A stretch of DNA of 64,000 nt from Rhodocyclaceae bacterium (GTDB lineage Bacteria; Pseudomonadota; Gammaproteobacteria; Burkholderiales; Rhodocyclaceae): NCBI GenBank assembly GCA_044230495.1, contig JBGARB010000004.1, positions 438-64,437 on the forward strand, written 5' to 3'. Positions 1 through 59,628 of this stretch are shown in pieces. The translations under genes were made by a program, and so were the position numbers. The notes beneath the pieces are model-generated. The model was not told the DNA's origin. It ran no database searches and saw only the letters and a list, made by a program, of their open reading frames with translations. Each line of letters opens with the position of its first letter. Position 1 is the first letter of the stretch.

Positions 1-1399
1 TGCCGGCCAGCAGGACGACATCGTCAGCCGCCGCCGCGCCGATCGCGCGCATGATCGCGGCGCCGCGTTCGGCATCGACAACGCGTTCGGCGCCCGCCGT
101 CATGCCGGCGACGATCTGATCGATGATCGCCTGCGGCGGCTCGCTGCGCGGATTGTCGCTGGTCACCCAGCTCACGTCGGCGAGCCGCTCGGCGATGGCG
201 CCCATCAAGGGCCGCTTGCCCGGATCGCGGTCACCGCCGCAGCCGAACACGCAATGCAGCCGGCCGCCGCGTGCCCGCGCCGTCTCGCGCAGGCTGCCCA
301 GCACCTGCTCCAGCGCGTCCGGCGTATGGGCGTAGTCGACGACCACCAAGGGTTCGTTGGCGCCGCCCAGCGCCTGCATGCGCCCGGGTGGAGGCGCAAG
401 GTGTGTCAGCGCGCCGGCGATGTCGCCAAGCGCATGACCATGCGCGCGCAGCACGCCGATGACCACCAGCAGGTTGGCGACGTTGAAGCGGCCGACCACG
501 GGAGATGCAAAGCAGACCCCGTCGACCTTGAAGGCGACGCCGCCGGCGCTGAAATCGAGCTCTCGTGCCAGCAACGTCCTGCCGCGCCACGCGGCGGGGA
601 TGCTGGCCGCGTCGAGTGCGCAGGCAAAACCCTCGACGGCGCGCGGCAGCCCGAGGGCCAACGTGCGACCAAACGCGTCATCGACGTTGATGACGGCAGC
701 AGGCAGCGCCGGCCAGGCGAACAGCCGCGCCTTGGCCTCGGCATAGGTCGCCATGTCGCCGTGGTAGTCCAGATGGTCGCGCGTGAGGTTGGTAAAGGCG
801 GCGACGGCGAAACGCGCCGCGCACACGCGGCCCTGCGCGATGCCGATCGACGAAACCTCCATCGCGCAGGCCGGCAGGCCGCGGGCGACGAAGCCGGCCA
901 GCGTTTCATGCACCGCCACGGCGTCGGGCGTGGTGTTCGGCGATTCCGCCAGCTCGCCGGGCAGGCCGCTGCCCAGTGTCCCGATGACCGCGCAGGGCGT
1001 GCCTAGCCGGCCCATGGCCTGCGCGATCCATTGCGTCACCGAGGTCTTGCCGTTGGTGCCGGTGACGCCGGCGAGCCAGAGTTGCGCACTGGGATGCCCA
1101 TACACCACGTCGGCAAGGCCGCCGACGCGGTGCGCCAGCCCCTTGACGACGACGATCGGCGCGCGTTTTGCGCCAGGCGCCGTGTCACCACCACTGTAGT
1201 TTGGCGGCGTGCCGTCCTCGGCGACGACGGCGGCGGCGCCGCGCGCCAGCGCATCGGCGATGAACGCGCGGCCATCGACGCGCGCACCGCGCAGCGCGAC
1301 GAAGATGTCGCCGGGCTGCACGCGGCGAGAATCGGCACACAGCCTGCGCGCGACGACGCCGTGGGCGGCGAGCGCATCGAGGATCGCCTGCGGATTCAC
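1..1399 (-). CDS. murE: UDP-N-acetylmuramoyl-L-alanyl-D-glutamate--2,6-diaminopimelate ligase (MurE); 3' end runs off the window
   Basis: My own minus-strand translation from GTG at 1399 reads VNPQAILDAL...LAGVTGTNGKTS (Mur ligase P-loop)...VTSDNPRSEP. It stays open to position 1, so it is absent from the ORF track. It lies directly downstream of ftsI, as in dcw clusters. The start codon choice is uncertain. Confidence 0.85.
   Translation of the reverse strand, partial: MNPQAILDALAAHGVVARRLCADSRRVQPGDIFVALRGARVDGRAFIADALARGAAAVVAEDGTPPNYSGGDTAPGAKRAPIVVVKGLAHRVGGLADVVYGHPSAQLWLAGVTGTNGKTSVTQWIAQAMGRLGTPCAVIGTLGSGLPGELAESPNTTPDAVAVHETLAGFVARGLPACAMEVSSIGIAQGRVCAARFAVAAFTNLTRDHLDYHGDMATYAEAKARLFAWPALPAAVINVDDAFGRTLALGLPRAVEGFACALDAASIPAAWRGRTLLARELDFSAGGVAFKVDGVCFASPVVGRFNVANLLVVIGVLRAHGHALGDIAGALTHLAPPPGRMQALGGANEPLVVVDYAHTPDALEQVLGSLRETARARGGRLHCVFGCGGDRDPGKRPLMGAIAERLADVSWVTSDNPRSEPPQAIIDQIVAGMTAGAERVVDAERGAAIMRAIGAAAADDVVLLAG
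1178..1202 (-). repeat. 25-bp dispersed repeat, copy 1 (AAACTACAGTGGTGGTGACACGGCG)
   Basis: Read directly. It lies inside murE in the sense orientation and is translated NYSGGDTA, in the variable region before the P-loop. Confidence 0.9.
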
Positions 1400-3126
1400 A
1401 ACTTTTTCTCCGCGGGCGCGGCATTGGCCATCACCAGCGGCTTGAGCGGCGCGTCGGGCGCGACGCCCAGCGCCCGCAGCGAGCCGCCCATGATCTCGGC
1501 GAACACCGGTGCGGCGACATCGCCGCCGTAGTGCTTGCCCTGCGGTTCGTCGATGGCCACGGCAACGATCAGGCGCGGTTCGGAGGCCGGCGCGAAGCCG
1601 ACGAAAGAGGACAGGTACTTGTTCACGTACACGCCCTCCTCGATCTTGTGCGCCGTGCCGGTCTTGCCGGCGACGCGATAGCCCGGCACCTGCGCCGCCG
1701 GCGCCGTGCCGCCCGGCTGCACCGCCATCTCGAGCATGGCGCGGACTTCGCGTGCGGTCTGCGGCGTAAATACCGTCGCCGGCTGCGGCAGCGGCGCTGC
1801 GACGCGCACCAGCGAGAGCGGCAGCATGTCGCCATCGCGCGCGAACACCTGGTAGGCGCGCGCCATGTGCATCAGCGACACCGACAAGCCGTGGCCGTAG
1901 GCCATCGTCGCCTGCTCGATCGGCTTCCAGGTTTTCGCCGCCCGCAAGCGCCCGGCGCTGGCGCCGGGGAACCCGATCTGCACCGGCGCGCCGAAGCCGA
2001 GGGAGCGGAAGCCGCGGTCCATGTCGCCGGCTTCCAGGTCCAACGCCACCTTGGCGATGCCGACGTTGGACGATTTCTGGATCACTTCGGCGAGCGTGAG
2101 CAGGCCATGCTTGTGGGCATCGGAAATCTTGGCCTTGCCGATGGTCAGCGATCCGGGCGCGGTCTGGATCGGCGTATTGAAGCGGACGTTGCCCTTGTCC
2201 ATCGCCAGCGCGGCGACGAAGGGCTTCATCGTCGAACCCGGCTCGAAAGTGTCGGTGATCGCGCGATTGCGCAATTGCGGGCCGGAAAGCCGCGCGCGGT
2301 TGTTCGGGTTGTAGGTCGGCAGGTTGGCCAGCGCGAGGATTTCGCCGGTGCGCACGTCGATCGCCACCACGCTCGCGGCGCGGGCGCGCGTGTCGCGCAT
2401 GGCGCGCTCCAGCGCGGCGAAGGCGAGGTGCTGCACCTTGGCGTCCAGCGCCAGCACGATATCCTTGCCGTCCTGCGGCGCACGGATGCTTTCGACATCC
2501 TCGACGACATTGCCGCGGCGATCCTTGATGACCCGCCGGCTGCCGTTGCGACCCGCCAGCTCGGCCTGATAGGCACGCTCGATGCCCTCCTGCCCGGCAT
2601 CGTCTACGCCGGTGAAGCCGAGCATGTGCGCCATCGTTTCGCCGGACGGGTAGTAGCGACGGTATTCGTCCTGCTGGTGGAGGCCGGGCAGCTTCATGGC
2701 GGCGATGCGCGCGGCCAGCTCCGGGCTGATCTGGCGTTTGAGATAAACGAAGTCGCGGTCGCTGCCAAGCTTCTGCGTCAGCTCGCGGCTTTCCATGCCC
2801 AGCAGCTTCGCTAGCTCGCGCAGTTGCGACGGCGCAAGCTGGGCGTCGTCCGGAATCGCCCACAAGGACTTGACCGGCGTCGACACCGCCAGCACGCCGC
2901 CGTGGCGATCGACGATGCGCCCGCGCGTGGCCGGGATCTCGAGCTGCCGTTCATAACGGGCGCGACCCTTCTCGCCGAGAAATTCGTTGTTCACGCCCTG
3001 CAAGAAGAGCGCGCGCCCGGCCTGCGTGGCGAATCCCGCCAGCAGCAAGCCGAGCAGCACGCGTCGACGCCATGCCGGCAGACGCGACGACAACAGCGGA
3101 TTGCGCCCAACGCGACGGCTGATCAT
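1396..3126 (-). CDS. ftsI: peptidoglycan D,D-transpeptidase FtsI (PBP3)
   Basis: Taken from ORF 1396..3450. I chose the start at [12 protein letters not shown] (ATG 3126), which overlaps the ftsL stop as ATGA. It has an N-terminal TM segment, PBP dimerisation and transpeptidase regions (STMKP, SSN, KTGT motifs visible), and dcw synteny. Confidence 0.9.
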   Translation of the reverse strand: MISRRVGRNPLLSSRLPAWRRRVLLGLLLAGFATQAGRALFLQGVNNEFLGEKGRARYERQLEIPATRGRIVDRHGGVLAVSTPVKSLWAIPDDAQLAPSQLRELAKLLGMESRELTQKLGSDRDFVYLKRQISPELAARIAAMKLPGLHQQDEYRRYYPSGETMAHMLGFTGVDDAGQEGIERAYQAELAGRNGSRRVIKDRRGNVVEDVESIRAPQDGKDIVLALDAKVQHLAFAALERAMRDTRARAASVVAIDVRTGEILALANLPTYNPNNRARLSGPQLRNRAITDTFEPGSTMKPFVAALAMDKGNVRFNTPIQTAPGSLTIGKAKISDAHKHGLLTLAEVIQKSSNVGIAKVALDLEAGDMDRGFRSLGFGAPVQIGFPGASAGRLRAAKTWKPIEQATMAYGHGLSVSLMHMARAYQVFARDGDMLPLSLVRVAAPLPQPATVFTPQTAREVRAMLEMAVQPGGTAPAAQVPGYRVAGKTGTAHKIEEGVYVNKYLSSFVGFAPASEPRLIVAVAIDEPQGKHYGGDVAAPVFAEIMGGSLRALGVAPDAPLKPLVMANAAPAEKKL

Positions 3127-3389
3127 GGCCGGGCCTCGATGGCGAGGATCTCGCCGGCGGCGGGACCGCGCATGCCGAGGCGCTCGCGGGCGATCCGCTC
3201 GATGCGCGCCGGTGCCGCGACGGTGTGCAGCTCCAGTTGCAGTTGCCCCCATTCCACATCGAGGGCGCGGGTCCGCTTCTGTTCGACGTCGAGTGCCGAA
3301 TAGAGCGTGCGGGCGCGGTGGTTGGCATTCACCGTCGACAGCGCGCAGACCACGGCGATGAGCAACAGGACGAGATTGACGCGCGTCAT
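3123..3389 (-). CDS. ftsL: cell division protein FtsL
   Basis: An 88-aa protein, [21 protein letters not shown]..., with one TM helix followed by a coiled region. It sits between rsmH and ftsI. Confidence 0.85.
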
Positions 3390-4321
3390 GCGGCGGCCCC
3401 GATGCGTTCGGCCACGCGCAGCACGGCGCTTCTGGCGCGCGGATTGTCATTCACCTCTGCGGCGTCGGCGAAGATCGGCTTGCCGACCAGGCGCAACGGC
3501 GGCGCCGGCAACTCGGCGGCACGCACCGGCACGCCCCGGGGCGGTTGCGGCGCATTCGACTGCTCGCGCAGGAAGCGCTTGACGATGCGATCTTCCAGCG
3601 AATGAAAGCTGATCACCGCCAGCCGCCCTCCTTGCGCCAGTCGTCCCGCAGCCGCGGGCAATGCTAGCGACAGCTCTTCAAGCTCGCGATTGACGTGAAT
3701 CCGTAGAGCCTGGAAGGTGCGCGTCGCCGGGTGCTGGCCGGGCTCGCGCGTGCGCACGACTTGCGCCACGAGCGTGGCCAGCTCTCCTGTCCTTGCAATA
3801 CGTTGTTCGCGCCGAGCAGCAACAAGCGCCTTTGCAACCGCATGAGCAAACCGTTCTTCGCCATAGTCCCTCACCACCCTTTCGATGTCAGCTTCTGATG
3901 CCCGCGCCAGAAAATCGGCGGCGGTCTCCCCCCTCGTGGTGTCCATGCGCATGTCCAGCGGCGCATCGAACCGGAAGCTCATGCCGCGCTCGGCCGTATC
4001 GAGCTGAGGCGACGACACGCCGATGTCCATCAGCACGCCATCCACCTGCCCGACGCCTTGCGCATCGAGTACCGCGCCCATCTCGCTGAATGGCGCATGA
4101 ATCAGGGCCAGCCGCGGATCGCCCAGCGACGCGCCGGCGGCAATCGCCTGCGGATCGCGATCGAGCGCGATCAGCCGGCCCGCCGGACCGATCTGCGCAA
4201 GGATCGCCCGCGCGTGTCCGCCGCGCCCGAAGGTCGCATCGACGTAGATGCCGCCGGGCCGGATGGCCAGCGCCGCCACCGCCTGCGCGAGCAGCACCGG
4301 GACGTGGACGAGCGCAGTCAC
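3386..4321 (-). CDS. rsmH: 16S rRNA (cytosine1402-N4)-methyltransferase RsmH
   Basis: Taken from ORF 3386..4609. The start is trimmed to GTG at 4321 ([11 protein letters not shown]...), which overlaps the mraZ stop. HVPVLL and DATFGRGGH motifs are present. The length (311 aa) is typical. Confidence 0.9.
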
Positions 4322-6934: not shown

Positions 6935-7168
6935 GTGCCCTACTACATCTACCGCGTTACCCCGCTCGGCCCCGTGCGCAATCTCGCGCGTCTCGATCAG
7001 CACGAGGCCTTCAAGCCCGCCTCGAACGAGGCCAAGCGGCTGCGCCGCGAACTCGACCTCGCCCCCGGCGAACTGGTCAAGGTCATCTTCGCCGACAACG
7101 AGTTGCAGGCCGAAGAGCTGCTCAGCCAGGTGCGCGAAGGCGAACCGCTGACGGGAGACGATTGGTAG
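6935..7168 (+). CDS. hypothetical small protein (77 aa)
   Basis: A clean ORF 7 nt after the S24 gene on the same strand. No motif recognised. Confidence 0.5.
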   Translation: MPYYIYRVTPLGPVRNLARLDQHEAFKPASNEAKRLRRELDLAPGELVKVIFADNELQAEELLSQVREGEPLTGDDW

Positions 7169-7175: not shown

Positions 7176-7628
7176 ATGGACGAGTCCGCGTTCCGGCACG
7201 CCAAAGGCGAAATCAACCGCCTGCCCTGCGTCTTCGAACGCGCGCTGCTCGCCCGCCACGGTGTCTGCGAATGCGCCGTGCGGCACCAGATCGGCGAGCG
7301 CGAGACGATCGCCTGTGCGCAACCCGTGGCGCGCGCCGCCTGCGGTGAACTGCTGAACCTGCTGCGCGAAAAGTCCGCCTTCGCGCTGGGCATCGCCGAC
7401 GCCCGTCGTATCCTGCCTCATGCCATGGTGATGAAGATCCAATGCGGCGGCCTCGACGGCCTGCGCGACGCCGTGGCACCCGATGCCGCCGCGCCGAACG
7501 TGCACGCGCTGGTGCGCGCCGGCATCGACGCGCACGGCAGCCTCGCCGCGCTGCCGTTCGAACGCATCGTGCGCGGCATCGCGGCCTGGAAGGGTCGCCG
7601 TCGCCACGGCACGCGGAGCGCAACATGA
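7176..7628 (+). CDS. hypothetical protein (150 aa, several Cys)
   Basis: The ORF starts 8 nt after the previous gene. Its stop overlaps the next start (ATGA at 7625-7628), suggesting translational coupling. No family recognised. Confidence 0.5.
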   Translation: MDESAFRHAKGEINRLPCVFERALLARHGVCECAVRHQIGERETIACAQPVARAACGELLNLLREKSAFALGIADARRILPHAMVMKIQCGGLDGLRDAVAPDAAAPNVHALVRAGIDAHGSLAALPFERIVRGIAAWKGRRRHGTRSAT

Positions 7629-8665
7629 TCGCCGGCCTCGGCACGCTGATCGACACCGTGCAACGCAATTGCGACATCGCCGACGCGCGCCACGCTCGCG
7701 ACGTGACCATGTGCACCTACCTGCTCGGCATGCGCGAGCACTACCGTTGGGAGCATGCGCTGCCGTTCGGCGCCTCGCCGCCGCGTCAGGAAGTCGGTCG
7801 CTGGATCAGCGAGCGCGAAATCGGCTGGGCGCAACTGGACGAGGCCGAGTACGCCCCGCTCGCACTGGGTGACGAAAGCGTCGCGCCCTTCGACGCGCCG
7901 CGCGCCAACGTGCTGCTCAACCGCCACGGCCTCGTCTATGGCGCCGGCATCGGCCGCTTCGGCAAGCCGCATTTCTTCCTTGGCCGGCTGGCCCGCACCG
8001 AACGACGCGACGGCGCGCAGTTGCTCGTCTGCGAATGCGAATACGCGCGCGACATCAGCGCCATTCCGGCGGCTTTGCAGGGCGAGACCATCCTCGTGCG
8101 CCGCGATGCCCTGCGCCAATGGTTGTGGCAGAAGGTCGAGGGCTGGGCGGTGAAGCGCCAGCCGGGCGCACTGGCGCGCGCGCTGGCCGCCTACGACTAC
8201 GATGCCGATCCGCACGCGGCGCTCGAACGCCTCGTCGAGAGCGAGACCGAAACCCTGATCCTGCACGAGACCGGCGAGCTGGCCGCCGGCCGCCTGCTCG
8301 GTCCGGCCTGGCACGAGCGCCTCGCGGCGCTGCGCCATCGCCACGCCGAACTGCTGCTGCGCGCCGTGCGCGACCTGCTCGCCGATTGCCTGGTGACCCT
8401 GCCCGCGCTCGTCGCGCAGCGTCGCGATGCCTCGCTGCATCTGTGGTTCGCCGATTTCGACGGCCTGCGCCGCGAGCTGGCGCCCGGCCTCGCCGCCGCC
8501 TACGGCCAGGCAAACTACAGTGGTGGCGGGACGGCGGTTGACGCCTTGCAGCACGCCATCGCCGCCGGCGCCGCACACTGGCTGCACGTCGCGCGCACGC
8601 TGCTCGATGCCGACGACCACGCGCTGGTGGCGCTGGCGCAGGCGCCGCAATCCCTCACGCTATAG
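7625..8665 (+). CDS. conserved hypothetical protein (346 aa)
   Basis: Taken from ORF 7442..8665, trimmed to MIAGLGTLIDTVQRNCDIAD (ATG 7625). It contains one in-frame copy of the 25-bp repeat (…[16 protein letters not shown]…). Confidence 0.55.
   Translation: MIAGLGTLIDTVQRNCDIADARHARDVTMCTYLLGMREHYRWEHALPFGASPPRQEVGRWISEREIGWAQLDEAEYAPLALGDESVAPFDAPRANVLLNRHGLVYGAGIGRFGKPHFFLGRLARTERRDGAQLLVCECEYARDISAIPAALQGETILVRRDALRQWLWQKVEGWAVKRQPGALARALAAYDYDADPHAALERLVESETETLILHETGELAAGRLLGPAWHERLAALRHRHAELLLRAVRDLLADCLVTLPALVAQRRDASLHLWFADFDGLRRELAPGLAAAYGQANYSGGGTAVDALQHAIAAGAAHWLHVARTLLDADDHALVALAQAPQSLTL
8512..8536 (+). repeat. 25-bp dispersed repeat, copy 2 (AAACTACAGTGGTGGCGGGACGGCG)
   Basis: Lies inside CDS 7625..8665 in the sense orientation, translated NYSGGGTA. 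Confidence 0.9.
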
Positions 8666-9455: not shown

Positions 9456-10503
9456 CGCCCCGCGAGCTGCTGCGCGCGCTGTTCGACGCCGCGGTGCACC
9501 GCGCCGACGCCGCACATTGCCTGCCGCCTCATCTGCCCGCCCCGCCTGCCGGGCGCACGATCGTCGTCGGCGCCGGCAAGGCCGCTGCCGCGATGGCCGC
9601 CGCCGTCGAGGCGCACTGGCCCGCCGCTGCGCCGTTGGCCGGCCTCGTCGTCACGCGCTATGGCCACGGCATGCCGACGACCCGCATCGAGGTCATCGAA
9701 GCCGCGCATCCGGTTCCCGATGCCGCCGGCGCCGCAGCGGCGCAGCGCATCCTGGCCGCCGTACAGGGTTTGCATGCCGACGACCTCGTGCTGGCGCTGA
9801 TGTCGGGCGGCGGCTCGGCATTGCTGGCGCTGCCGGCGCCGGGCGTCACGCTCGCCGAAAAGCAGGCCCGCACGCGCGAGCTGCTGCGCAATGGCGCCTC
9901 GATCCACGCGATCAACGCCGAGCGCAAGCGGCTGTCGGCGATCAAGGGCGGCAAGCTCGCCGCCGCCGCGATGCCGGCGCGCGTACTCACACTGGCGATC
10001 TCCGACGTGCCTGGCGACGACCCGGCCACCATCGCCTCCGGGCCGACGGTGCCGTCGGCGGGCGATGCCGCCTTCCCGTTTTGCCGGACGCAGGTCATCG
10101 CCACGCCGCACGACAGCCTCGAGGCCGCTGCCACCATCGCCCGCGCGCAGGGCATCACGCCGGTGATCCTCGGCGACCGCATCGAAGGCGAAGCGCGCGA
10201 AGTGGCGCGCGTGCTCGCCGGCATCGCGCTGGCCTGCCGGGCGCACGGCACGCCGGCCGGCGCCCCCTGCGTGCTGCTCTCGGGCGGCGAGACCACGGTG
10301 ACGGTATCGACGGCGTGGAACACAATGCCGGCGCATTGCTTGCGCCGGATACGCTGGCACGCATGGCGGCAGCCGGCATCGACGCGCGTGCCCGGCTCGC
10401 CGACAACGACGCCTTCGGCGCCTTCGAGGCAGCCGACGACCTCGTCGTCACCGGCCCGACGCGCACCAACGTCAACGATTTTCGTGCCATCCTCGTCACA
10501 TGA
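9452..10503 (+). pseudogene. glycerate 2-kinase / hydroxypyruvate reductase-type (DUF4147+MOFRL) gene with an internal deletion and frameshift
   Basis: Frame 2 from GTG 9452 gives VTPRELLRALFDAA...LLSGGETTVTV up to about 10304. The expected continuation (GIDGVEHNAGALLAPDTLARM...VVTGPTRTNVNDFRAILVT-stop at 10503) is in frame 1. The usual G-x-GRGGRN...DTD block between the two parts is missing. Frame 2 reads on without a stop until 11056. Confidence 0.6.
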
Positions 10504-11987
10504 CTGCGTCGCACGAACCCGATTTTTCGACGGCCGACATCGCGGCATTGCTGGCGGCATTGCGCGAGACATTGCCCCCCGCCCGCCTGCTGGTCGACGC
10601 CGAGGATTTGCGGCCCTACGAATGCGACGGGCTGTCCGCCTACCGCCACCTGCCGCGCGCCGTGACGCTGCCCGAAAGCGAAGCCGAGGTAATCGCCATC
10701 CTGCGCGCCTGCCATCGCTTCGGCGTGCCGGTGGTGCCGCGCGGTGCCGGCACCGGCCTGTCCGCCGGCGCCCTGCCGCACGTCGACGGCATCGTGCTGA
10801 GCACCGCGCGCATGAAGCGCATCGTCCGCCTCGACCCGCTCGCGCGCGTGGCCGTGGTGCAACCGGGCGTACGCAACCTGGCCATCTCCGAAGCCGCCGC
10901 GGCGCACGGCCTCTATTACGCGCCGGACCCCAGCTCGCAGATCGCCTGCACCATCGGCGGCAATGTCGCCGAGAACTCGGGCGGCGTGCATTGCCTGAAA
11001 TACGGGCTGACGGTGCACAACGTCATGCGCGTGCGCGCCGTGCTGATCGACGGTGACGTCATCGAGTTGGGCGGCGAGGCGCCGGATGCGCCCGGCCTCG
11101 ACCTGCTGGCGCTGTTCATCGGCTCGGAGGGCCTGCTCGGCGTCGTCACCGAAGTCACCGTCAAGCTGTGTCCGAAGCCGCAGACGGCGCAGTGCATCAT
11201 GGCCTCGTTCGATGACGTCGGCAAGGCCGGCGATGCGGTGGCGGCGATCATCGCCGCCGGCATCATCCCGGCCGGACTGGAGATGATGGACAAGCCGGCC
11301 ACCGCCGCCGTCGAGCCCTTCGTCAAGGCCGGCTACGACCTGGACGCCGCCGCCATCCTGTTGTGCGAATCGGACGGCACGCCGGATGAGGTGCGCGAGG
11401 AAGTCGGCCGCATGAGCGCCGTGCTCGAGGGCGCCGGCGCGAAGGCGCTGCGCGTATCGGCGTCGGAGGCCGAGCGGCTGCGCTTCTGGGCCGGCCGCAA
11501 GGCGGCCTTCCCCGCGGCAGGACGCATTTCCGCCGACTATTACTGCATGGACGGCACCATACCGCGCAAGCGCCTGGGCGACATGCTCGGCGCCATCACG
11601 CAGATGGAACGGAAATACGGCCTGCGCTGCATCAACGTCTTTCATGCCGGCGACGGCAACCTGCATCCGCTGATTCTCTACGACGCCAATGTGCCCGGCG
11701 AACTGGAGCGCACCGAGGAGTTCGGCGCCGAGATCCTGCGTTTGTCGGTGGCGCTGGGCGGCACGATCACCGGCGAGCACGGCGTCGGCTTCGAGAAGAT
11801 CGGCGCCATGTGCGACCAGTTCGCCACCGACGAGCTGGCCGCCTTCCATGCCGTCAAGGCCGCCTTCGATCCCGCCGGCCTGCTCAATCCGGGCAAGGCG
11901 GTGCCGACGCTGCACCGCTGCGCCGAGCTGGGCCGCATGCATGTGCATGGCGGCCAGCTGCCGCATCCCGAACTGGAGCGCTTCTGA
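10500..11987 (+). CDS. glcD: glycolate oxidase subunit GlcD (FAD-linked oxidase)
   Basis: A 495-aa ORF with an FAD-binding PCMH domain (PRGAGTGLSAGALP), followed by glcE and glcF. Confidence 0.9.
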   Translation: MTASHEPDFSTADIAALLAALRETLPPARLLVDAEDLRPYECDGLSAYRHLPRAVTLPESEAEVIAILRACHRFGVPVVPRGAGTGLSAGALPHVDGIVLSTARMKRIVRLDPLARVAVVQPGVRNLAISEAAAAHGLYYAPDPSSQIACTIGGNVAENSGGVHCLKYGLTVHNVMRVRAVLIDGDVIELGGEAPDAPGLDLLALFIGSEGLLGVVTEVTVKLCPKPQTAQCIMASFDDVGKAGDAVAAIIAAGIIPAGLEMMDKPATAAVEPFVKAGYDLDAAAILLCESDGTPDEVREEVGRMSAVLEGAGAKALRVSASEAERLRFWAGRKAAFPAAGRISADYYCMDGTIPRKRLGDMLGAITQMERKYGLRCINVFHAGDGNLHPLILYDANVPGELERTEEFGAEILRLSVALGGTITGEHGVGFEKIGAMCDQFATDELAAFHAVKAAFDPAGLLNPGKAVPTLHRCAELGRMHVHGGQLPHPELERF

Positions 11988-13066
11988 TGGACGCCCTGCT
12001 TGCCGGGTTCCGTGAGCGCATCCGCGCCGGCACGCCGCTGGTCGTCCGCGGCGGCGGCAGCAAGGATTTCTACGGCGGCGCAGCGACGGGCAACGTGCTC
12101 GACGTGCGCGCCTGGCAGGGCATCGCCAACTACGAACCGAGCGAGCTGGTCATCACCGCCCGCGCCGGCACGCCGCTGGCCGAGGTCGAGTCGCGGCTCG
12201 CCGCGCAAGGCCAGTGCCTCGCCTTCGAGCCGCCGCGCTTCGGCGCCGGTGGCACCATCGGCGGCATGGTGGCTTGCGGGCTCTCCGGTCCGCGGCGCAT
12301 GAGCGTGGGCGCGCTGCGCGATTTCGTGCTCGGCGTCACGATCATGGACGGCAACGGCCGCGTGCTGAAGTTCGGCGGCGAAGTAATGAAGAACGTCGCC
12401 GGCTTCGATGTCTCGCGCCTGATGGCCGGCAGCATGGGCACGCTGGGCGTGCTGCTGGACGTTTCGGTGAAGGTGCTGCCGGTGCCCGTGGCCGACGCCA
12501 CGGTGGTCCTGGCGATGAACGAAGCGGACGCGCTGCAGGCCGTCAATCAGTGGGCCGGCCAGCCCCTGCCGTTGGCCGCGACGTGCTGGTCGCCCGAGCA
12601 GGGCGGCATGCTCGCCGTGCGCCTGGCCGGCGCCCGCGCGGCGGTCGAGGCGGCGGCGCGCAAGATCGGTGGCGAGCCGCCCTCGCCTGAAGGCGCAAAC
12701 TACAGTGGTGGTGGCACGGCGCTGTGGGCGTCGCTGCGCGATCACACGCACGCATTCTTCGCCGGTGACGCGCCGCTGTGGCGGCTTGCCGTGCCATCGA
12801 CCGCGCCTGCACTCGATCTGGGGCCGACGCTGGTCGAATGGGGCGGCGGCCAGCGCTGGTTGCGCGGCGAATTCGACGCCCGGTCGCTGCGCGAAACCGT
12901 CGCCAAGGCGGGCGGCCACGCGACGCTGTTTCGCGGCGGCGACAAGTCGGTGGGCGTCTTCACGCCGACGGTACCCGCGATCGCCGCCTTGCAGCAGCGG
13001 CTGCGCGCCGCATTCGATCCGCATGGCGTGTTCAACGCGGGTCGTTTGTACCCGGCTGTGCCATGA
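11987..13066 (+). CDS. glcE: glycolate oxidase FAD-binding subunit GlcE
   Basis: The start, MDALLAGFRERIRAGTPLVVRGGGSKDFYG (ATG 11987), overlaps the glcD stop. It carries an in-frame copy of the 25-bp repeat (…[17 protein letters not shown]…). Confidence 0.85.
   Translation: MDALLAGFRERIRAGTPLVVRGGGSKDFYGGAATGNVLDVRAWQGIANYEPSELVITARAGTPLAEVESRLAAQGQCLAFEPPRFGAGGTIGGMVACGLSGPRRMSVGALRDFVLGVTIMDGNGRVLKFGGEVMKNVAGFDVSRLMAGSMGTLGVLLDVSVKVLPVPVADATVVLAMNEADALQAVNQWAGQPLPLAATCWSPEQGGMLAVRLAGARAAVEAAARKIGGEPPSPEGANYSGGGTALWASLRDHTHAFFAGDAPLWRLAVPSTAPALDLGPTLVEWGGGQRWLRGEFDARSLRETVAKAGGHATLFRGGDKSVGVFTPTVPAIAALQQRLRAAFDPHGVFNAGRLYPAVP
12697..12721 (+). repeat. 25-bp dispersed repeat, copy 3 (AAACTACAGTGGTGGTGGCACGGCG)
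   Basis: Lies inside glcE in the sense orientation, translated NYSGGGTA. Confidence 0.9.
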
Positions 13067-18964: not shown

Positions 18965-18989
18965 AAACTACAGTGGTGGTGGGACGGCG
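18965..18989 (+). repeat. 25-bp dispersed repeat, copy 4 (AAACTACAGTGGTGGTGGGACGGCG)
   Basis: Lies at a convergent junction, 6 nt after the stop at 18958. Its reverse strand supplies …AVPPPL-TAG, the end of the TerC-family gene. A CGGCGGCG/CGCCGCCG hairpin follows (18991-19009). Confidence 0.9.
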
Positions 18990-21619: not shown

Positions 21620-21644
21620 CGCCGTGTCACCACCACTGTAGTTT
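21620..21644 (-). repeat. 25-bp dispersed repeat, copy 5 (AAACTACAGTGGTGGTGACACGGCG)
   Basis: Fills most of the 34-nt convergent spacer between the GGDEF gene stop (21619) and the uvrA stop (21654). Confidence 0.9.
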
Positions 21645-21653: not shown

Positions 21654-24521
<2,868 letters not shown>

Positions 24522-24560
24522 GGGGCGCAGGGCGAAAAGGGAAGCCGGGCAATATACAGG

Positions 24561-37899: not shown

Positions 37900-37904
37900 T
37901 CGGA

Positions 37905-37929: not shown

Positions 37930-38100
37930 GTAGAGGCGTCGCCGGCACGGGTGACGTCGTGGCGCCGTAGCGCCCCGCACCTCGGGCGGCCGGCGCAGCG
38001 AGGTAGAGAAGGAGCCGCCGGAGGCGGCGGGTGACACGAGCGTAGTCGGTGCCCGAAGGTCGCGGGGCGCGGAACCGCATTGCGGTTTCGGCGCCCGCCC

Positions 38101-38125
38101 AAACTACAGTGGTGGCGGGACGGCG
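38101..38125 (+). repeat. 25-bp dispersed repeat, copy 9 (AAACTACAGTGGTGGCGGGACGGCG)
   Basis: The second direct copy, 196 nt after copy 8 and 111 nt before the stop of the small hydrogenase-like subunit. Confidence 0.9.
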
Positions 38126-38236
38126 GTCGAGTCGCCCCAAGCCTGAGTCGCCACCACGCATCCCGCTCGCGGGCGCTGCGCCCTCACTGCGTGGGGCCCC
38201 CTCCGCTGCGAGCGGTCGCTATGGCAACACGGCGCT

Positions 38237-45474: not shown

Positions 45475-47628
45475 TCAGCGGGCCTCGTTGCCGCCCCAGC
45501 GCTGGGGCATCAGCGGACACGACAGCGGTGCAAGCGCCGTCCCGCCACCACTGTAGTTTGCGTAGATCGCCTCCAGCGCCTGATCGTAGGTGGAGAAGAT
45601 CCTGTCCTCGCCCAGCCAGGCCAGCAGGCCCGTGGCGCGCATGACGTCCAGCACCTGCTTCTTGAGGCCCGAAAACACCACATCGACGCCGCCCTCGCGC
45701 AAGCGGCGGATGACATGGTGCATGACTTCCTCACCCGAGGCATCCAGCTCGTTGATGCCGTCGCCGACGATCAGCAGCGTGCGCGCCTTCGGGTTGCCGG
45801 CCACCGCCTCGAGGATCGCATCCTCGAAGTACGACACGTTGGCGAAATACAGCCGACCGTCGAAGCGCACGGCGGTCACGATCTCCGAGGTCGGCAGGTT
45901 GTGCACCTTGACGTCGCGCAAGGTGCCGTCGGCATGCCGGCCGAGAATCGCCACGCGCGGGCGCATGGTGCGGAAAAGGTACAGCGCGATGGCCACCGCG
46001 GCGCCGACGAGGATGCCGGTATCGAGGTGCGGCGCAAAGGCCAGCGTGGCGGCAAAGGTGATGATCGCCGCGATGCCGTCGTGTCTGCTGGCCTGCCACG
46101 CGTGACGGATGGCACCGAAATTCACCAGCCCGACAACGGCCATGATGATGACCGCCGCCAGCACCGCCTGCGGCAGGTGGTAGAGCAGCGGCGTCAGGAA
46201 CAGCAGCGTGAGCAGCACGAACAAGCCGGTGAATACCGCCGAGAGTCCGCTCGCCGCGCCGGCGTTGAGATTCACCGCCGAGCGCGAGAACGACCCCGAT
46301 ACCGGAAAACCCTGTGTCAGCGCACTGGCCAGATTGGCCAGCCCCTGCCCCAGCAACTCCTGGTTCGGATCGATGCGTTGACGGGTCTTGGCGGCCATTG
46401 CCTTGGCGATCGAGATCGCTTCCATGAACGCCACCAGCGAGATCACCACCGCCGCCGACAGCAGCGCGCGCAGGCTGTCCCAACTGATCGCAGGCAGGGC
46501 CACGGTGGGCAAGCCTTCGGGAACCTTGCCGACGACTTCGCCACCGCCCACCAGCCGAACCTCGCCCCCCGGTGCGCCCGGCGCGCGCGCAATGCGCCAG
46601 CGATGACCGTCCGTCCCTTGTGCGGGTGCCGCCGCGGCATCGACGAACCGGTCCGCAGCGCCCGCCGCACCGGGAAGGCGCGCCAACGACATGCTGCGCA
46701 GCGCCCGGTTGCGCACGCGATTCTCGGCCTCGCGATCTTTCAGTTGCAGCCGCAGCACGTCGATTTCGTAGTTGAGCGTCAGCGCCGCATGCGCGCCACC
46801 GGTACCCGCCTTGCGTGCCGCGGCCAGCGCCGCGCCCCCGCTCGCGATGCGCGCATTCAACTCCTCGATCTTCTGCTGCGCCGAGGCGTATTCGGCGAGC
46901 AGCATCACCGCCTCGGGCGCCTCGATCTGCGCCAGCGATACCGCCGCATTGCGCTCGAAGCCGACGGACCAACTGACCACGGTCGCGATGGCCACGGCCA
47001 CCAGCACGCCGGGCGCGCGCGGCGCAAGCCGCCGCAAGACCGCCATGACGGCGATCGCGCCGACGCCCATCGCCAGCGTCGGCCAGTGCGTGTCGCCGAT
47101 CTGCAGCAGCACGTTCCAGACATCGGCGACAAAGTGCTCGGTGCGCGGCATCGGCACGCCGATGAGCTTGTTCACCTGCGACAGCCCGATGATGATCGCC
47201 GCCGCATTGGTGAAGCCGACGATCACCGGATGCGACAGGAAATTGACCACCACGCCCAGTCGGAAGACGCCGAGCACGAGCTGGAAGACGCCGACCAGCA
47301 GCGCCAGCCCGATCGCCAGCGCGACGTAGGCCTCGGTGCCGCCGGCGGCCAGCGGCGCCAGCGCCGACGCCGTGAGCAGCGAGGCCACGGCGACCGGCCC
47401 GGTGGCGAGCTGGCTGGAGGAGCCCCACAACGCGCCGATCACCGCCGGCAGGAAGCCGGCATACAGCCCGTAGTACGGCGGCACGCCCGCCAGTTGGGCG
47501 TAGGCCATCGATTGCGGCACGAGCACCAGCGCCACCGTCAGGCCGGCGACGAAGTCCGCCCGCATCGAGCCGGCATTCGGCGCCGGCCAGCGCAAAAAGG
47601 GCAACCATGCGGAGAGTGCGGATTTCAT
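45475..47628 (-). CDS. SulP-family anion transporter with a ~140-aa insertion inside the TM core, plus STAS
   Basis: A 717-aa ORF. SulP core motifs (…GVPPYYGLYAGFLPAVIGAL…) are present. A coiled/low-complexity insert lies between …VGFERN and GKVPEGLP…. A STAS domain is present. The C-terminal tail reads through a copy of the 25-bp repeat (…[17 protein letters not shown]…). Confidence 0.85.
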   Translation of the reverse strand: MKSALSAWLPFLRWPAPNAGSMRADFVAGLTVALVLVPQSMAYAQLAGVPPYYGLYAGFLPAVIGALWGSSSQLATGPVAVASLLTASALAPLAAGGTEAYVALAIGLALLVGVFQLVLGVFRLGVVVNFLSHPVIVGFTNAAAIIIGLSQVNKLIGVPMPRTEHFVADVWNVLLQIGDTHWPTLAMGVGAIAVMAVLRRLAPRAPGVLVAVAIATVVSWSVGFERNAAVSLAQIEAPEAVMLLAEYASAQQKIEELNARIASGGAALAAARKAGTGGAHAALTLNYEIDVLRLQLKDREAENRVRNRALRSMSLARLPGAAGAADRFVDAAAAPAQGTDGHRWRIARAPGAPGGEVRLVGGGEVVGKVPEGLPTVALPAISWDSLRALLSAAVVISLVAFMEAISIAKAMAAKTRQRIDPNQELLGQGLANLASALTQGFPVSGSFSRSAVNLNAGAASGLSAVFTGLFVLLTLLFLTPLLYHLPQAVLAAVIIMAVVGLVNFGAIRHAWQASRHDGIAAIITFAATLAFAPHLDTGILVGAAVAIALYLFRTMRPRVAILGRHADGTLRDVKVHNLPTSEIVTAVRFDGRLYFANVSYFEDAILEAVAGNPKARTLLIVGDGINELDASGEEVMHHVIRRLREGGVDVVFSGLKKQVLDVMRATGLLAWLGEDRIFSTYDQALEAIYANYSGGGTALAPLSCPLMPQRWGGNEAR
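45535..45559 (-). repeat. 25-bp dispersed repeat, copy 10 (AAACTACAGTGGTGGCGGGACGGCG)
   Basis: Lies inside the 3' tail of SulP gene 45475..47628 in the sense orientation, translated NYSGGGTA. Confidence 0.9.
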
Positions 47629-51611: not shown

Positions 51612-51636
51612 CGCCGTGCCGCCACCACTGTAGTTT
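51612..51636 (-). repeat. 25-bp dispersed repeat, copy 11 (AAACTACAGTGGTGGCGGCACGGCG)
   Basis: Lies in the 35-nt convergent spacer between the adenosyltransferase stop (51602) and the cNMP-binding gene stop (51638). Confidence 0.9.
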
Positions 51637-52210: not shown

Positions 52211-53818
52211 CTACTTCGTGCAGGATTCGCCAGGAAAGTAGCGGTCGCAGAAATAGCAGCCGCGCTGCGGCAGCCATGCCGGCAGCTGGTAGTAGCGCCG
52301 ACGCACCTCGCGCAGCACTTCTTCGCGATAGCGCGCGTAATCGAAGCCCTCGCCGCGGATCAGCCAGAAAGTCGCTCCGCGTACCTCGATCGTCTGCACG
52401 CGCGAACGGCGGAAATACGGCTGGTAGTAGCCGGCCTCGGGCGCCGTCTTGCGCAGGATCAGGAGGTTGCGGCCGTCGAGCGAGCGTACATCCGTCATGA
52501 TGTCGTCGTGCCGCGCATGCGAGGAGCCCAGGCCGAAGACCATCACGTAACGCTTCAGGTTCCACGCCAGCGTGATCGCGTTCGAATAACCGTCCATCGC
52601 CGGCACCCAGTTCTTCTGCGCATCGGCAAGGTCCGCCGCCAGCGCCGCCGCAATGCCGGCGCCATCGACGGTCAGCACGGCGCTCGGGTAGATGCGCTGT
52701 TTGCGCCATGTCTCCAGCGGCAACTGCGCCATGACGAACGCGGCGACGACGTGCAGCACGGCGAAGCCGACGAAGAACACGCCGAGCCGGCGCAAGGTCG
52801 GCAGCGGCACGCGCAGCGCCACCCAGATCAGCACGAAGGGCACGAACGACAGCAGCCAGTGCAGGCCGATGGTCTTCGGCCCGGAGAGCAGCCCGAACAG
52901 CAGCAACGGCACGCCGGCCAGCACGACCAATGAAACGACAGTGGTGGCGGGACGGCGCATGACATCGACCGCGTCGGCCGGATCGGCTGGCGGGCCGGCC
53001 GGCAGCGGATCGAGCGTGCGGCGCACGGCCAGCCAGGCTGCCGGCGGCGAAAAGACGTAGAGCAGCGTTGCCGCGTAGAGCAGCGGCGTTACCCACGAGA
53101 AGGCCGCGTCGGCGTTGCGATTGACGAAATTGAACATGTAGTTCGGCCAGCAATGGCCGGCGTTCCACCAGGCCATCAGCGCCAGCGCCGGCACGCACAT
53201 CGCATACGTGACGAACAACCCCGCCCAGATGCCGCGGCGGCGCAGGCGCGCCGTATCGACGAGATAGGCAAAGCCCAGCAAGGCGACGAAATATTTCGAC
53301 AGCACGGCGCCGGCCAGCAGTACACCACACAAGACGAACCAGCCCCAGCCATCGCCGGGACGCCGCTGCACCGCACGCAGCCAGGCCAGACCCGAAAGCA
53401 CGCTGAAATAGACCAGCGGCGTGTCGGTGGTGACGAAGACGTTCCAGACGTTGGCCGGCGCCAGCAGCACCAGCAGGAACAGCGCATTGCGCCGCGCCGG
53501 CTCGATGCCGGGCCAGAGCCGTGGCGCGGCCCAGGCGATGGCCAGCGCCAGCAGCAGCGGCTGCAGGATCGTCGCCACGCGCAGCAGCAGCGCCGAATCG
53601 CCCAGCGCGGAAAGCGCTGCGAGCCACCAGCCGATCATCGGCGGATGATCGTAATAGCCCCAGTCCGGCGCAAAGCCCCACCAAATGAAATATGCCTCGT
53701 CGCCGGTGACCGGCGTGACCCAGCCCAGCCAGAAACGGAAGACCAGCGAGGCGACGACGATCGCCGCCAGGACCGGCACATCGAGCAGGCCGGCGCGGGC
53801 CGGCGGGATGTGCGCCAT
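52211..53818 (-). CDS. ArnT/PMT-like (GT39/GT83) membrane glycosyltransferase with a C-terminal soluble domain
   Basis: A 535-aa ORF with an N-terminal …GDEAYFIWWG…YYDHPPM… motif and about 11 TM helices. It carries a reverse-oriented copy of the 25-bp repeat in a loop (…VMRRPATTVVSLV…). Confidence 0.75.
   Translation of the reverse strand: MAHIPPARAGLLDVPVLAAIVVASLVFRFWLGWVTPVTGDEAYFIWWGFAPDWGYYDHPPMIGWWLAALSALGDSALLLRVATILQPLLLALAIAWAAPRLWPGIEPARRNALFLLVLLAPANVWNVFVTTDTPLVYFSVLSGLAWLRAVQRRPGDGWGWFVLCGVLLAGAVLSKYFVALLGFAYLVDTARLRRRGIWAGLFVTYAMCVPALALMAWWNAGHCWPNYMFNFVNRNADAAFSWVTPLLYAATLLYVFSPPAAWLAVRRTLDPLPAGPPADPADAVDVMRRPATTVVSLVVLAGVPLLLFGLLSGPKTIGLHWLLSFVPFVLIWVALRVPLPTLRRLGVFFVGFAVLHVVAAFVMAQLPLETWRKQRIYPSAVLTVDGAGIAAALAADLADAQKNWVPAMDGYSNAITLAWNLKRYVMVFGLGSSHARHDDIMTDVRSLDGRNLLILRKTAPEAGYYQPYFRRSRVQTIEVRGATFWLIRGEGFDYARYREEVLREVRRRYYQLPAWLPQRGCYFCDRYFPGESCTK
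52933..52957 (+). repeat. 25-bp dispersed repeat, copy 12 (AAACGACAGTGGTGGCGGGACGGCG, 24/25 match)
   Basis: Lies inside the GT39-like gene in antisense orientation, translated RRPATTVVS in a predicted loop. The T-to-G change falls in the TAG triplet of the repeat's reverse strand, which lies in a frame other than the one this gene reads. Confidence 0.85.
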
Positions 53819-59576: not shown

Positions 59577-59598
59577 CGCGCCGCCACAGCGCGGCGCG
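59577..59598 (+). terminator. GC-rich hairpin CGCGCCGC-cacagc-GCGGCGCG immediately after the stop codon
   Basis: Perfect 8-bp arms were read from the sequence. No U-tract follows, so its role as an intrinsic terminator is uncertain. Confidence 0.3.
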
Positions 59599-59603
59599 GT
59601 GCG

Positions 59604-59628
59604 AAACTACAGTGGTGGTGACACGGCG
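59604..59628 (+). repeat. 25-bp dispersed repeat, copy 13 (AAACTACAGTGGTGGTGACACGGCG)
   Basis: Lies in the convergent spacer between the DUF1348-like gene and phoX, bracketed by the two GC-rich hairpins. Confidence 0.9.

Follow-up and report, generated by a model that had tools for sequence, protein, structure and literature searches.

Uptake signals (USS) of the Pasteurellaceae come in a Hin type (AAGTGCGGT) and an Apl type (ACAAGCGGT), with an extended consensus of about 30 nt. Their perfect copies far outnumber singly mismatched ones, a pattern that Redfield et al. considered characteristic of USS but anomalous if these were binding sites of the ordinary kind, and the same authors tested USS and found them not to be insertions (PMC1626085). 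Both USS and the DUS of Neisseriaceae show a bias in reading frame and a preference for poorly conserved residues, and their density is 0.8 to 0.9 per kb (PMC2817400). The temperate phages of Pasteurellaceae, including those assembled in IMG/VR, accumulate USS (PMC6776037).

Here we describe a 25-base repeat in a 64-kb stretch of betaproteobacterial DNA (the window), where the consensus AAACTACAGTGGTGG-YGRS-ACGGCG, designated W, is present in 11 perfect and 2 near-perfect copies against an expectation of 0. USS resemble this repeat in being nonpalindromic, in lying on both strands, and in the excess of perfect over mismatched copies (PMC1626085, PMC2817400, PMC6776037). Further likenesses are the many in-gene copies, which favor one frame and residues of low conservation, the clade dialects, the mostly gap-free sites, and the accumulation in temperate phages and IMG/VR contigs; the W dialect and a sister dialect, R, parallel the Hin- and Apl-type USS (PMC1626085) as well as the DUS dialects (PMC3630211). 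Unlike USS, which consist of a 9-bp core and AT tracts, the repeat has 21 to 23 conserved positions and a fixed 4-nt free center, a density about 4 times lower, and at least one en bloc insertion of 18 nt (in glcE), and its length of 25 to 27 bp contrasts with the 9- to 12-bp cores of USS and DUS. DUS are 12-mers whose reader is the minor pilin ComP (the window, too, encodes minor pilins of a type IV pilus), and they share with the repeat betaproteobacterial hosts, dialects that track lineages, and copies that often lie just downstream of genes (PMC3630211, PMC3868556). In contrast to DUS, the repeat forms no inverted terminator pairs, is twice as long, and has a larger coding share.

The SDRs of Nostocaceae (21 to 27 nt) are of the same size class, are likewise dispersed, and reportedly include some insertions relative to orthologues (Elhai et al. 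2008, as cited in PMC5861425 and PMC3116915). SDR4 to SDR6 reportedly share a stem-loop, which the repeat lacks. To our knowledge, SDRs have been reported only in Nostocaceae, with neither a dialect shift at orthologous sites nor a presence in phages described. Rickettsia palindromic elements are about 100 to 150 bp long, palindromic, and always insertions that lie in frame in genes, and they have in common with the repeat that a DNA-level sequence is tolerated in frame within conserved proteins. REP/REPIN sequences with their RAYT transposases are similarly short, of high copy number, and prone to occupy the spacers of convergent genes, but REPs are extragenic imperfect palindromes, whereas the repeat has no hairpin and 7 of its 13 copies overlap coding sequence.

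Results

Composition of the repeat. The exact 15-mer AAACTACAGTGGTGG occurs 11 times in the 64-kb window and 0 times in dinucleotide shuffles, and two further copies (35300-35324, minus strand; 52933-52957, plus strand) match it with one or two mismatches. In 13 of 13 copies, ACGGCG lies exactly 4 nt 3' of the 15-mer. The count of 11 full and 2 diverged copies given in a preliminary description is therefore upheld, as is its statement that positions 1 to 15 and 20 to 25 are fixed: in the 11 full copies all variation falls at positions 16 to 19, which read TGAC (four copies), CGGG (three copies), or TGGC, TGGG, CAGG, and CGGC (one copy each). Over the 21 fixed positions the mismatch spectrum is bimodal, with 11, 1, and 1 copies at 0, 1, and 2 mismatches, none at 3 to 5, and chance levels at 6 or more. 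Eight copies are on the plus strand and five on the minus strand, at distances of 196 bp to 11.7 kb and a density of 0.2 per kb.

Weak flanking preferences (C or G 5' of position 1; S and Y 3' of position 25) stretch the unit to about 27 nt, and information content is at background right outside positions 0 to 27, in keeping with the earlier claim that no conserved flanks exist beyond a C/G. The two diverged copies have a T5-to-G change in common. By a hand count of the 11 full copies, G26 is confined to C.GG centers (3 of 4 such copies versus 0 of 7 others), and this linkage hints at descent from master copies. Neither strand of the repeat forms a significant hairpin (z, -1.5 to +1.5), and no palindrome, terminal inverted repeat, target duplication, or array was found at the window copies, so the prior exclusion of REP/BIME, MITE, CRISPR, and attC- or dif-like elements stands. 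The W genome was sampled over 64 kb, in which no other such repeat family was found, and R-type hosts over about 34 kb.

Placement of copies. The sense in-gene copies (n = 5; in murE, DUF6866, glcE, SulP, and, just beyond the 64-kb window, DUF3299) are all read in a single frame, N-Y-S-G/R-G-x-T-A, the one in which rare codons are fewest. They fall where the proteins are poorly conserved, in linkers, loops, or termini. Elsewhere, copies are found in short spacers, mainly between convergent genes, and many lie 1 to 9 nt past stop codons in very short convergent spacers that have no terminator hairpin.

All copies but the two diverged ones (copies 7 and 12) are W-type. Copy 1 (1178-1202, minus strand; center TGAC) lies inside murE, where it reads N-Y-S-G-G-D-T-A in a loop about 7 amino acids longer than in most homologues. 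The frame NYSGGGTA is read from copy 2 (8512-8536, plus; CGGG) in the DUF6866 gene (7625-8665), copy 3 (12697-12721, plus; TGGC) in glcE (11987-13066), and copy 10 (45535-45559, minus; CGGG) near the C terminus of a SulP/STAS gene (45475-47628, minus). Copy 4 (18965-18989, plus; TGGG) begins 6 nt past the stop of a plus-strand gene (end, 18958); on the reverse strand, it provides the final codons (..AVPPPL) and TAG stop of terC (18968-19936, minus). The 34-nt convergent spacer between a GGDEF gene (stop at 21619) and uvrA (stop at 21654) is occupied by copy 5 (21620-21644, minus; TGAC), and the divergent spacer between a minor-pilin operon and a PAS/HisKA_3 sensor kinase gene contains copy 6 (33314-33338, plus; TGAC). 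Copy 8 (37905-37929, plus; CAGG), 5 nt past the SulP-Usp stop, shares a 337-nt spacer between convergent genes with copy 9 (38101-38125, plus; CGGG), 196 nt away in direct orientation. Copy 11 (51612-51636, minus; CGGC) is 1 nt past the stop of a cNMP-binding gene and 8 nt from that of a converging cob(I)alamin adenosyltransferase gene, and copy 13 (59604-59628, plus; TGAC) is 27 nt past the DUF1348 stop in a spacer common with converging phoX. Both diverged copies are antisense: copy 7 (AAACGACAGTGGCGGCGGAACGGCG), also found in Logan contig L100, abuts or overlaps the TTG (35323) called as the start codon of the SulP-Usp gene, and copy 12 (AAACGACAG...) lies in a PMT_2 glycosyltransferase gene (52211-53818, minus), where it is read RRPATTVV and its T-to-G change is synonymous (GTA to GTC).

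A sister dialect at orthologous sites and in phages. Related betaproteobacteria, whose closest named homologues are from Rhodocyclales and Sulfuritalea, carry the R dialect, RAAAGTCGGCGCTGG-YGRN-ACGGCG. W and R have the same 15 + 4 + 6 layout: a 15-nt head, a semi-free center (with Y, G, R, and N preferences), and the ACGGCG tail, followed by a weak S-Y. At the SulP C terminus, the R copy of relative L103 (GAAAGTCGGCGCTGGCGGGACGGCG) sits without an indel at the position of copy 10; the two are equal in length and identical at 18 of 25 nt, including 12 of the 3' 12 nt (GCA AAC TAC AGT GGT GGC GGG ACG GCG in the window versus GCG AAA GTC GGC GCT GGC GGG ACG GCG in L103). The DUF6866 site, NYSGGGTA in the window, holds an R copy in relative L104 (AAAAGTCGGCGCTGGTGACACGGCG, read KVGAGDTA), and the PMT_2 loop of L103 has an R-like copy (CAAACTCGGCGCCGGCGGTACGGCG, read RRTAGAEF) in the strand and frame of copy 12. 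The Fer2 gene of L104 contains a second perfect R copy, in antisense; the window sequence at that site is unrelated but just as long. The lineages in which copy positions are conserved are 25 to 40% divergent in protein sequence. Judged from these alignments, the 25-base repeat is a lineage-specific dialect of an older two-part, nonpalindromic DNA tag of 25 to 27 bp.

The R dialect extends to phages: at least 120 IMG/VR contigs carry it, in at least 80 unrelated contexts, among them portal, terminase, methylase, and PAPS-reductase-like genes. The imperfect phage copies form a graded tail, with 22, 17, 17, and 18 copies at 1 to 4 mismatches among the matches listed.

Stability and origin of copies. 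More than 10 independent assemblies (ENA and Logan) have the same copies at the same sites, indicating that the repeat is not an assembly artifact, a possibility raised at the outset. Copies are kept at all sites covered in strains of 95.8 to 99.8% identity (copy 11 has one SNP in the ENA strains); down to 95.8% identity, none of the 10 sites covered was polymorphic for the presence of its copy. Plasmids, cultured phages, and Rfam gave no match to the motif, nor did tRNA scans, and no promoter-like context was found around it.

Copies have originated both without gaps and by en bloc insertion. At most coding sites the alignment is free of gaps (SulP, Fer2, terminase in L171 versus L165, L214 versus L204, and an RT-like gene in L152). 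In glcE, codon alignment reveals 18 nt inserted cleanly just 5' of ACGGCG, between GC(A) and the hexamer, and the hexamer is already present at this site in relative L089. The cNMP/CobA spacer with copy 11 is 16 nt longer in the window than in L103 (35 versus 19 nt), and one phage 5' region differs in length by about 30 nt. Set against the finding of Redfield et al. for USS, insertions of the glcE type imply that copying from a template must take place in at least some cases. The wider-family dialect, the single reading frame, the phage-borne sister dialect, and the glcE insertion all go beyond the preliminary description.

Discussion

From sequence comparison, the repeat is best read, tentatively, as a DNA uptake or self-recognition signal akin to USS and DUS. 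Favoring it are the strong consensus (11:1:1), both orientations, lack of structure, and single frame, together with the dialects at orthologous sites, shared architecture, phage copies, mostly gap-free sites, and stability; its counterpoints are the 21 to 23 conserved positions, the 0.2-per-kb density, the en bloc insertion, and the linked positions. A DUS-like signal had already been proposed, and later evidence favors that proposal, whereas the two other options named with it, a binding site and an insertion mechanism, keep a lower probability; the type IV pili invoked with it are represented in the window by a minor-pilin operon at 24.5 to 33 kb, which is not specific evidence. Type IV pili are widespread and are no proof of uptake.

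Among the alternatives, an actively written or mobile ultra-small element, copied from a fixed template by a trans-acting enzyme (e.g., a reverse transcriptase or recombinase), is unlikely. The head and center (about 18 to 19 nt) would be copied beside an ACGGCG anchor, overwriting older copies that share it; a change of template would create a new dialect, and selection would purge harmful insertions. The glcE copy, as an exact insertion next to a preexisting hexamer, fits such copying, as do the net length gains (murE, the cNMP/CobA spacer, and one phage 5' region), the bimodal mismatch spectrum in the host, the linkage of center to position 26, which suggests subfamilies, the shared T5-to-G change, and the presence of the motif in many unrelated phage genes. 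There is a precedent in the 21- to 27-nt SDRs, reported as mobile (Elhai et al. 2008, as cited in PMC5861425 and PMC3116915). However, length is unchanged at SulP, Fer2, terminase, and L214, where insertion fits only if exactly 25 nt were replaced; the 10 covered sites show no presence/absence polymorphism; terminal repeats, target duplications, and hairpins are all absent; and the 64 kb yielded no candidate enzyme or template. We know of no such writer in bacteria.

Somewhat less probable still is the reading that the repeat serves as the target of a conserved cellular factor that binds DNA or RNA. The sites would be selected for function one by one and would coevolve with the factor, which might act in nucleoid organization, in the packaging or transduction of DNA (pac-like), or in the handling of RNA 3' ends. 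A two-domain reader would account for the two-part layout with its fixed 4-nt spacer, and the conservation of positions across divergent lineages, the many copies just past stops in hairpin-free convergent spacers, and the retention of the motif by phages of the same clade are in line with such a site. But ordinary sites have a relaxed consensus rather than identity at 21 of 21 positions (an argument from PMC1626085), and there is neither an Rfam hit nor a promoter-like context. Copies face either way with respect to genes and also fall within coding regions unrelated to one another, which speaks against a role at the RNA level or one tied to transcription. In phage genomes their positions vary (portal, terminase, methylase, and others), which does not fit a single pac or cos site. 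Derivation from a longer known element (an IS end, REP/REPIN, MITE, or CRISPR repeat) or an assembly or vector artifact is highly improbable and effectively refuted by the background-level flanks, the lack of palindrome, hairpin, or array, the lack of plasmid, cultured-phage, Rfam, or tRNA-scan matches, and the recurrence of copies across the independent assemblies. The sole point for a known element is a short GTAG on the reverse strand of the repeat, which we take to recall REP heads.

Under the uptake or self-recognition reading, tagged DNA would be favored by a component of the corresponding machinery that recognizes the sequence, and tagged alleles would spread by recombination. Copies would then persist only at low-harm sites, namely, in one frame at poorly conserved positions, at gene ends, and in convergent spacers, and a change in the recognizing component would bring about a concerted shift from R heads to W heads at orthologous copies. 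We infer that biased DNA uptake is the driver and that the tag is read by a receptor, e.g., a minor pilin of the type IV pilus. The two-part tag family, common to a group of betaproteobacteria and their phages, is previously undescribed. Uptake signals have so far come from two bacterial families, and the host of this repeat is a betaproteobacterium outside both.

Structure and abundance of the tag

The 15-nucleotide (nt) head of the repeat, AAACTACAGTGGTGG, has 11 exact copies and two with one or two mismatches in the 64-kb window, where the expected number is 0, and in 13 of 13 copies the hexamer ACGGCG lies exactly 4 nt 3' of the head. In a column-by-column count, positions 1 to 15 and 20 to 25 of this two-part repeat (hereafter, the tag) are invariant and its center is semi-free (Y, G, R, S). 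C or G is favored 5' of position 1 and S-Y is favored 3' of position 25, and elsewhere the information content is that of the background. The 15 and 6 invariant positions, together with the semi-conserved center, give a total length of 25 to 27 bp, and center variants are linked to position 26. Across the 21 fixed positions, 11, 1, and 1 copies have zero, one, and two mismatches; none have three to five, and numbers at six or more are those of the Markov expectation.

Copies are distributed over both strands (8 forward and 5 reverse) at spacings of 196 bp to 11.7 kb and a density of 0.2 per kb, and two further copies occur in the 10 kb next to the window. The G+C content of the window is 63 to 71%, and its GC skew is flat. 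Neither strand of the tag folds into a hairpin better than shuffled sequence does. Within the window, the tag is the sole repeat family of its type, and there are no tRNA, tmRNA, or Rfam matches.

Gene context and reading frame

Gene context was established by translation around each copy and from the gene calls of matching public contigs. Six copies are intergenic, and five of these are in spacers between convergent genes, where they begin 1 to 27 nt after a stop codon. Four perfect copies lie in the sense orientation inside genes (murE, a DUF6866 gene, glcE, and a SulP/STAS gene) and are read in a single frame as N-Y-S-G-G-(G/D)-T-A; a fifth sense copy, in a DUF3299 gene just past the right end of the window, uses the same frame. 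All five are located in linkers, loops, or termini. By our own arithmetic, the probability that five sense copies share one of six frames is P ~ 1e-3 if frames are equally likely, and of all the frames, the one used contains the fewest codons that are rare in a high-G+C genome. One further copy, through its reverse strand, forms the end of terC (six codons and the TAG stop). One of the diverged copies (copy 12, 52933-52957, +) is antisense within a loop of a PMT_2 glycosyltransferase, where its T-to-G change is synonymous, and the other (copy 7, 35300-35324, -) adjoins the start of a SulP-Usp gene. The intergenic and antisense copies exclude a role at the protein level, such as that of an N-glycosylation sequon (N-Y-S).

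Three other features of the window were recorded. An unusually long convergent spacer of 337 nt (37900-38236) contains a short hairpin (GAACCGCATTGCGGTTTC) and two copies of the tag, in direct orientation and separated by 196 nt; this spacer has no open reading frame (ORF) with a coding signal and no Rfam match. A minor-pilin operon of a type IV pilus (24500-33000, -), encoding a FimT/U-like protein with an N-methyl motif, a PilV-like protein, PilW, and a PilY1 of 1652 amino acids, is the lowest-G+C part of the window (0.63 to 0.65) and has no copy inside it. At 10300-10305, a glycerate-kinase-like gene (DUF4147/MOFRL) lacks 101 bp that are present in three ENA strain contigs, which read ..GETTVTV-RGTGRGGRNAEFLLALALAL..DTDGIDG.. 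at this site. The deletion is flanked by GACGG direct repeats and is not divisible by 3 in length, indicating either a pseudogene or an assembly error.

Stability among strains

The same population is represented by more than 20 independent contigs that exact-protein look-ups recovered from ENA megahit assemblies (ERZ272584xx) and Logan runs; they are 95.8 to 99.8% identical to the window. Every copy that they cover (copies 2 to 5, 7, and 10 to 13, numbered along the window) is at the same place, with one single-nucleotide polymorphism, in copy 11, and all GlcE variants within a 90% cluster keep the tag. The recurrence of the same copies at the same sites in independent contigs indicates that the tag is not an artifact and has not been recently mobile on the timescale of strains; the possibility of an assembly artifact, raised in the preliminary description, was thus not borne out.

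The absence of copy 14 from strain contig L097 is uninformative about mobility, as it belongs to a larger replaced segment with a breakpoint about 90 nt away. At positions ~3400 to 3790, the whole upstream cassette differs between strain contigs L095 and L097 (Zip/ZrgA/ABC-FtsX versus ZnuA/ABC); the breakpoint is inside the DUF3299 gene, just past the signal peptide, and the tag-bearing N terminus is in one strain only. Within the GlcE cluster, a divergent sequence replaces the first ~20 residues of P0393 and P0395, which are otherwise identical to the other members, a mosaic produced by recombination within the population.

Two dialects at orthologous sites

To judge from orthologous sites, relatives carry a sister repeat of the same architecture, and each lineage has its own head. 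We refer to the head of the window as the W dialect and to that of the relatives, AAAGTCGGCGCTGG, as the R dialect. The two heads have 9 of their 15 positions in common, the differences being at positions 4, 5, 6, 8, 10, and 12; the R dialect was not found in the window, nor the W dialect in the relatives. SulP proteins of closer relatives (73 to 76% identity) have the same length and read AIYA-KVGAGGTA-A at the segment encoded by the tag in the window. In the syntenic relative L103, GAAAGTCGGCGCTGGCGGGACGGCG occupies the identical position and matches the window at 18 of 25 nt, including all of the last 12 (12/12). Homologues of the DUF6866 protein read KVGAGDTA at the tag site, for which the DNA of relative L104 is AAAAGTCGGCGCTGGTGACACGGCG. 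A second copy in L104, with an identical 15-nt head and tail and another center, is antisense in a Fer2 gene, at a site occupied in the window by unrelated sequence of equal length. L103 likewise has a further copy, slightly variant and antisense, in the same PMT_2 loop as copy 12 of the window. This concerted change of heads at orthologous copies is the outcome expected of a genome-wide change in recognition specificity, and transposition followed by decay fits it badly.

Alignments reveal no gap at the SulP, Fer2, and terminase sites or at the phage loci L214 and L152, as against 18 nt at glcE, about 7 additional amino acids in murE, and 16 additional nt in one spacer. The murE loop, ~7 residues longer than in most homologues, is variable. 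In glcE, six residues are absent from relatives exactly at the tag, and the codon alignment places a clean 18-nt insertion, AACTACAGTGGTGGTGGC, between GC(A/G) and ACGGCG, a hexamer that pre-exists in relative L089. This en bloc insertion, anchored on a pre-existing ACGGCG, implies that copying from a template takes place at least sometimes. An R-like match in the glcE of relatives (ELESALAARRQ) was dismissed as a chance likeness to G+C-rich coding sequence, the segment being conserved far beyond the clade.

Relatives also contain other short repeats. L091 has three copies of GCCGGGCCGCCCCAAGG in 14.5 kb (at 1798, 5830, and 11996), with a REP-like look, and L104 has five of GACGGTATCCCC (7064-7146 and 12978-13024), three of them at 41-bp spacing.

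Distribution of the dialects

The W lineage is isolated in the databases. Its 25-mer pattern was found in one contig of the metagenome collection, the lineage being rare in collections, and had 0 matches in IMG/VR. Homologues of the window's proteins are at most 65 to 76% identical, and those that are named belong to Rhodocyclales, Sulfuritalea, or Sterolibacteriaceae metagenome-assembled genomes; carriers are uncultured metagenome lineages. The W 15-mer alone had 71 matches in reference genome contigs (596 Gb), where about 1,100 are expected by chance according to our arithmetic; these single matches in unrelated phyla were taken as chance hits. BLAST searches of plasmids and cultured phages with either dialect yielded chance-level partial matches only.

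A scan of IMG/VR for AAAGTCGGCGCTGG-N4-ACGGCG returned at least 120 stretches. The 120 matches listed (1.15 Mb, 60% G+C) contain 128 exact copies and 22, 17, 17, and 18 copies with one, two, three, and four mismatches, respectively. At least 80 copies share neither flank with any other copy and so represent independent contexts; across 80 such contexts, the only flank conservation is an R just 5' of the head and a weak S-Y just 3' of the tail, and their center preferences are as in the window. The R copies occur in genuine phage genes, including those for portal, large terminase, DNA methylase, PAPS-reductase-like, and giant polyvalent proteins, and this placement in many different genes rules out a pac site. 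Among the matches listed, the commonest register by a longest-ORF heuristic, K-V-G-A-G-x-T-A, is that of NYSGGxTA in the window. Homologous phage ORFs, in a rough gap test, were mostly gap-free, with a few indels (e.g., ~30 nt in a 5' region).

Several phage loci have arrangements of their own. A ~55-nt module closes a phage DNA-methylase gene in L106, L110, L121, L126, L133, L140, L168, and others; it consists of an R-type tag plus GTGCAGGGCGACATGCTTTTGCCTGCYAAC and encodes KVGAG(D/E)TAVQGDMLLPAN*. At least six unrelated sequences precede this module, and the mosaic junction coincides exactly with the 5' edge of the tag (compare L108, L120, L134, L146, and L209). In L141 (882-2240), five R-type copies with the tail ACGGCA and identical short flanks are spaced 316 to 385 bp apart, the tag lying within a tandemly repeated unit. 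The gpA-type large terminase ORF of L171 (IMG/VR_UViG_3300034053_000033; 1126 amino acids) has an intein- or homing-endonuclease-like segment between its ATPase motifs and an R-type tag just past the nuclease domain.

Likeness to uptake signals and alternative explanations

Neither dialect appears as a repeat in the searchable literature, in keeping with the statement in the preliminary description that no described element is known to have this sequence. That description had also set aside several classes of repeat, and those exclusions hold. REP, MITE, CRISPR, insertion sequence (IS) fragment, and artifact readings all failed on their defining features. A REP or REPIN is a hairpin palindrome at an extragenic site; neither strand of the tag has a significant fold, and 7 of the 13 copies overlap coding sequence. 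A MITE or IS remnant is expected to have terminal inverted repeats, a target duplication, and a longer body; no inverted repeats or duplication were seen, and the flanks are at background information. Lying on both strands at intervals of 196 bp to 11.7 kb, the copies lack the regularity of a CRISPR direct-repeat array. Hairpins that involve the flanks and insertion into hairpins already present were rejected on nonsignificant fold z-scores. An origin from tRNA 3' ends (reverse strand ..GCCACCA..) was rejected as well, given unrelated flanks and no tRNA, tmRNA, or Rfam match in the window. Chi and KOPS sites are 8 nt long with a strong replication-linked strand skew; the tag does not fit in length, and the 8/5 strand split in one 64-kb window argues against strong skew. 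The SDRs of Nostocaceae are reportedly dispersed repeats of 21 to 27 nt that are insertions relative to orthologues, SDR4 to SDR6 having a stem-loop. The tag falls in this size class, but an insertion is seen for glcE only, other sites are gap-free, and the stem-loop is absent.

The closest likeness is to the uptake signals of Pasteurellaceae (USS) and Neisseriaceae (DUS). In those systems, competent cells or their receptor favor DNA bearing the signal in binding and uptake. Uptake sequences are nonpalindromic and similarly numerous on both strands (PMC2817400), and the tag is massively overrepresented on both (13 copies versus 0 expected). Perfect copies of the USS, which has a strong consensus, outnumber mismatched ones (PMC1626085), as do those of the tag (11 versus 1 + 1). 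Uptake sequences have a reading-frame bias and occupy poorly conserved residues (PMC2817400), much as the five sense copies share one frame in linkers, loops, or termini. Their clade-specific dialects (PMC1626085; PMC3630211) are paralleled by the W and R heads, which share their SulP and DUF6866 positions and the PMT_2 loop, and their accumulation in temperate phages, IMG/VR assemblies included (PMC6776037), is paralleled for the R dialect only (80 independent contexts in IMG/VR, where at least 120 contigs carry it). In contrast, USS and DUS cores are 9 to 12 bp, the tag being two to three times longer, and their density is 0.8 to 0.9 per kb (PMC2817400), making the tag about four times sparser. 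Copies of USS and DUS are expected to originate by substitution without insertion; the tag combines gap-free sites with the 18-nt insertion in glcE.

An uptake or self-recognition signal is the best-supported mechanism for the demonstrated anatomy, distribution, and evolutionary pattern of the tag, although we rate it at somewhat below an even chance. We infer DNA uptake to be the driver; candidates for reading the tag would then be the products of the minor-pilin operon (fimT/U-pilV-W-X-Y1). An active "writer" or mini-element is unlikely and fits poorly with the gap-free sites and the absence of polymorphism among the strains, but the length and sparseness of the tag relative to USS and DUS, the anchored insertion in glcE, and the linkage of center variants to position 26 keep it alive. 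With a similarly low probability, the tag is not passively enriched: dedicated machinery might anchor a templated copy process on ACGGCG and insert or overwrite the 19 nt upstream in both chromosomal and phage DNA, the template setting the dialect; a reverse transcriptase or recombinase with a nearby noncoding RNA containing CGCCGU-NNNN-CCACCACUGUAGUUU could serve as such a writer and template. That the tag is a binding site for a cellular factor seems quite improbable: such a site would yield positional conservation and coevolution, but 21/21 identity and copies on either strand within unrelated genes would go unexplained.

Implications

If, as hinted by the 18-nt insertion in glcE, the tag were the product of a writer, it would represent a tiny mobile or templated element of a categorically new kind and would found a new class of ultrasmall, nonautonomous genome-tagging elements. 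To our knowledge, sequence-specific DNA uptake signals come from only two bacterial families. The tag appears to be uptake-signal-like outside those two, with an unusual two-part form and at least two dialects. It makes a third family of such sequences, one unrelated to the other two that shares their evolutionary signatures (dialects, frame bias, and phage accumulation) and occurs in environmental betaproteobacteria whose nearest named homologues are Rhodocyclales and Sulfuritalea. The tag could be used to link uncultured phages with hosts in metagenomes, and it makes the existence of uptake signals beyond two families directly testable.
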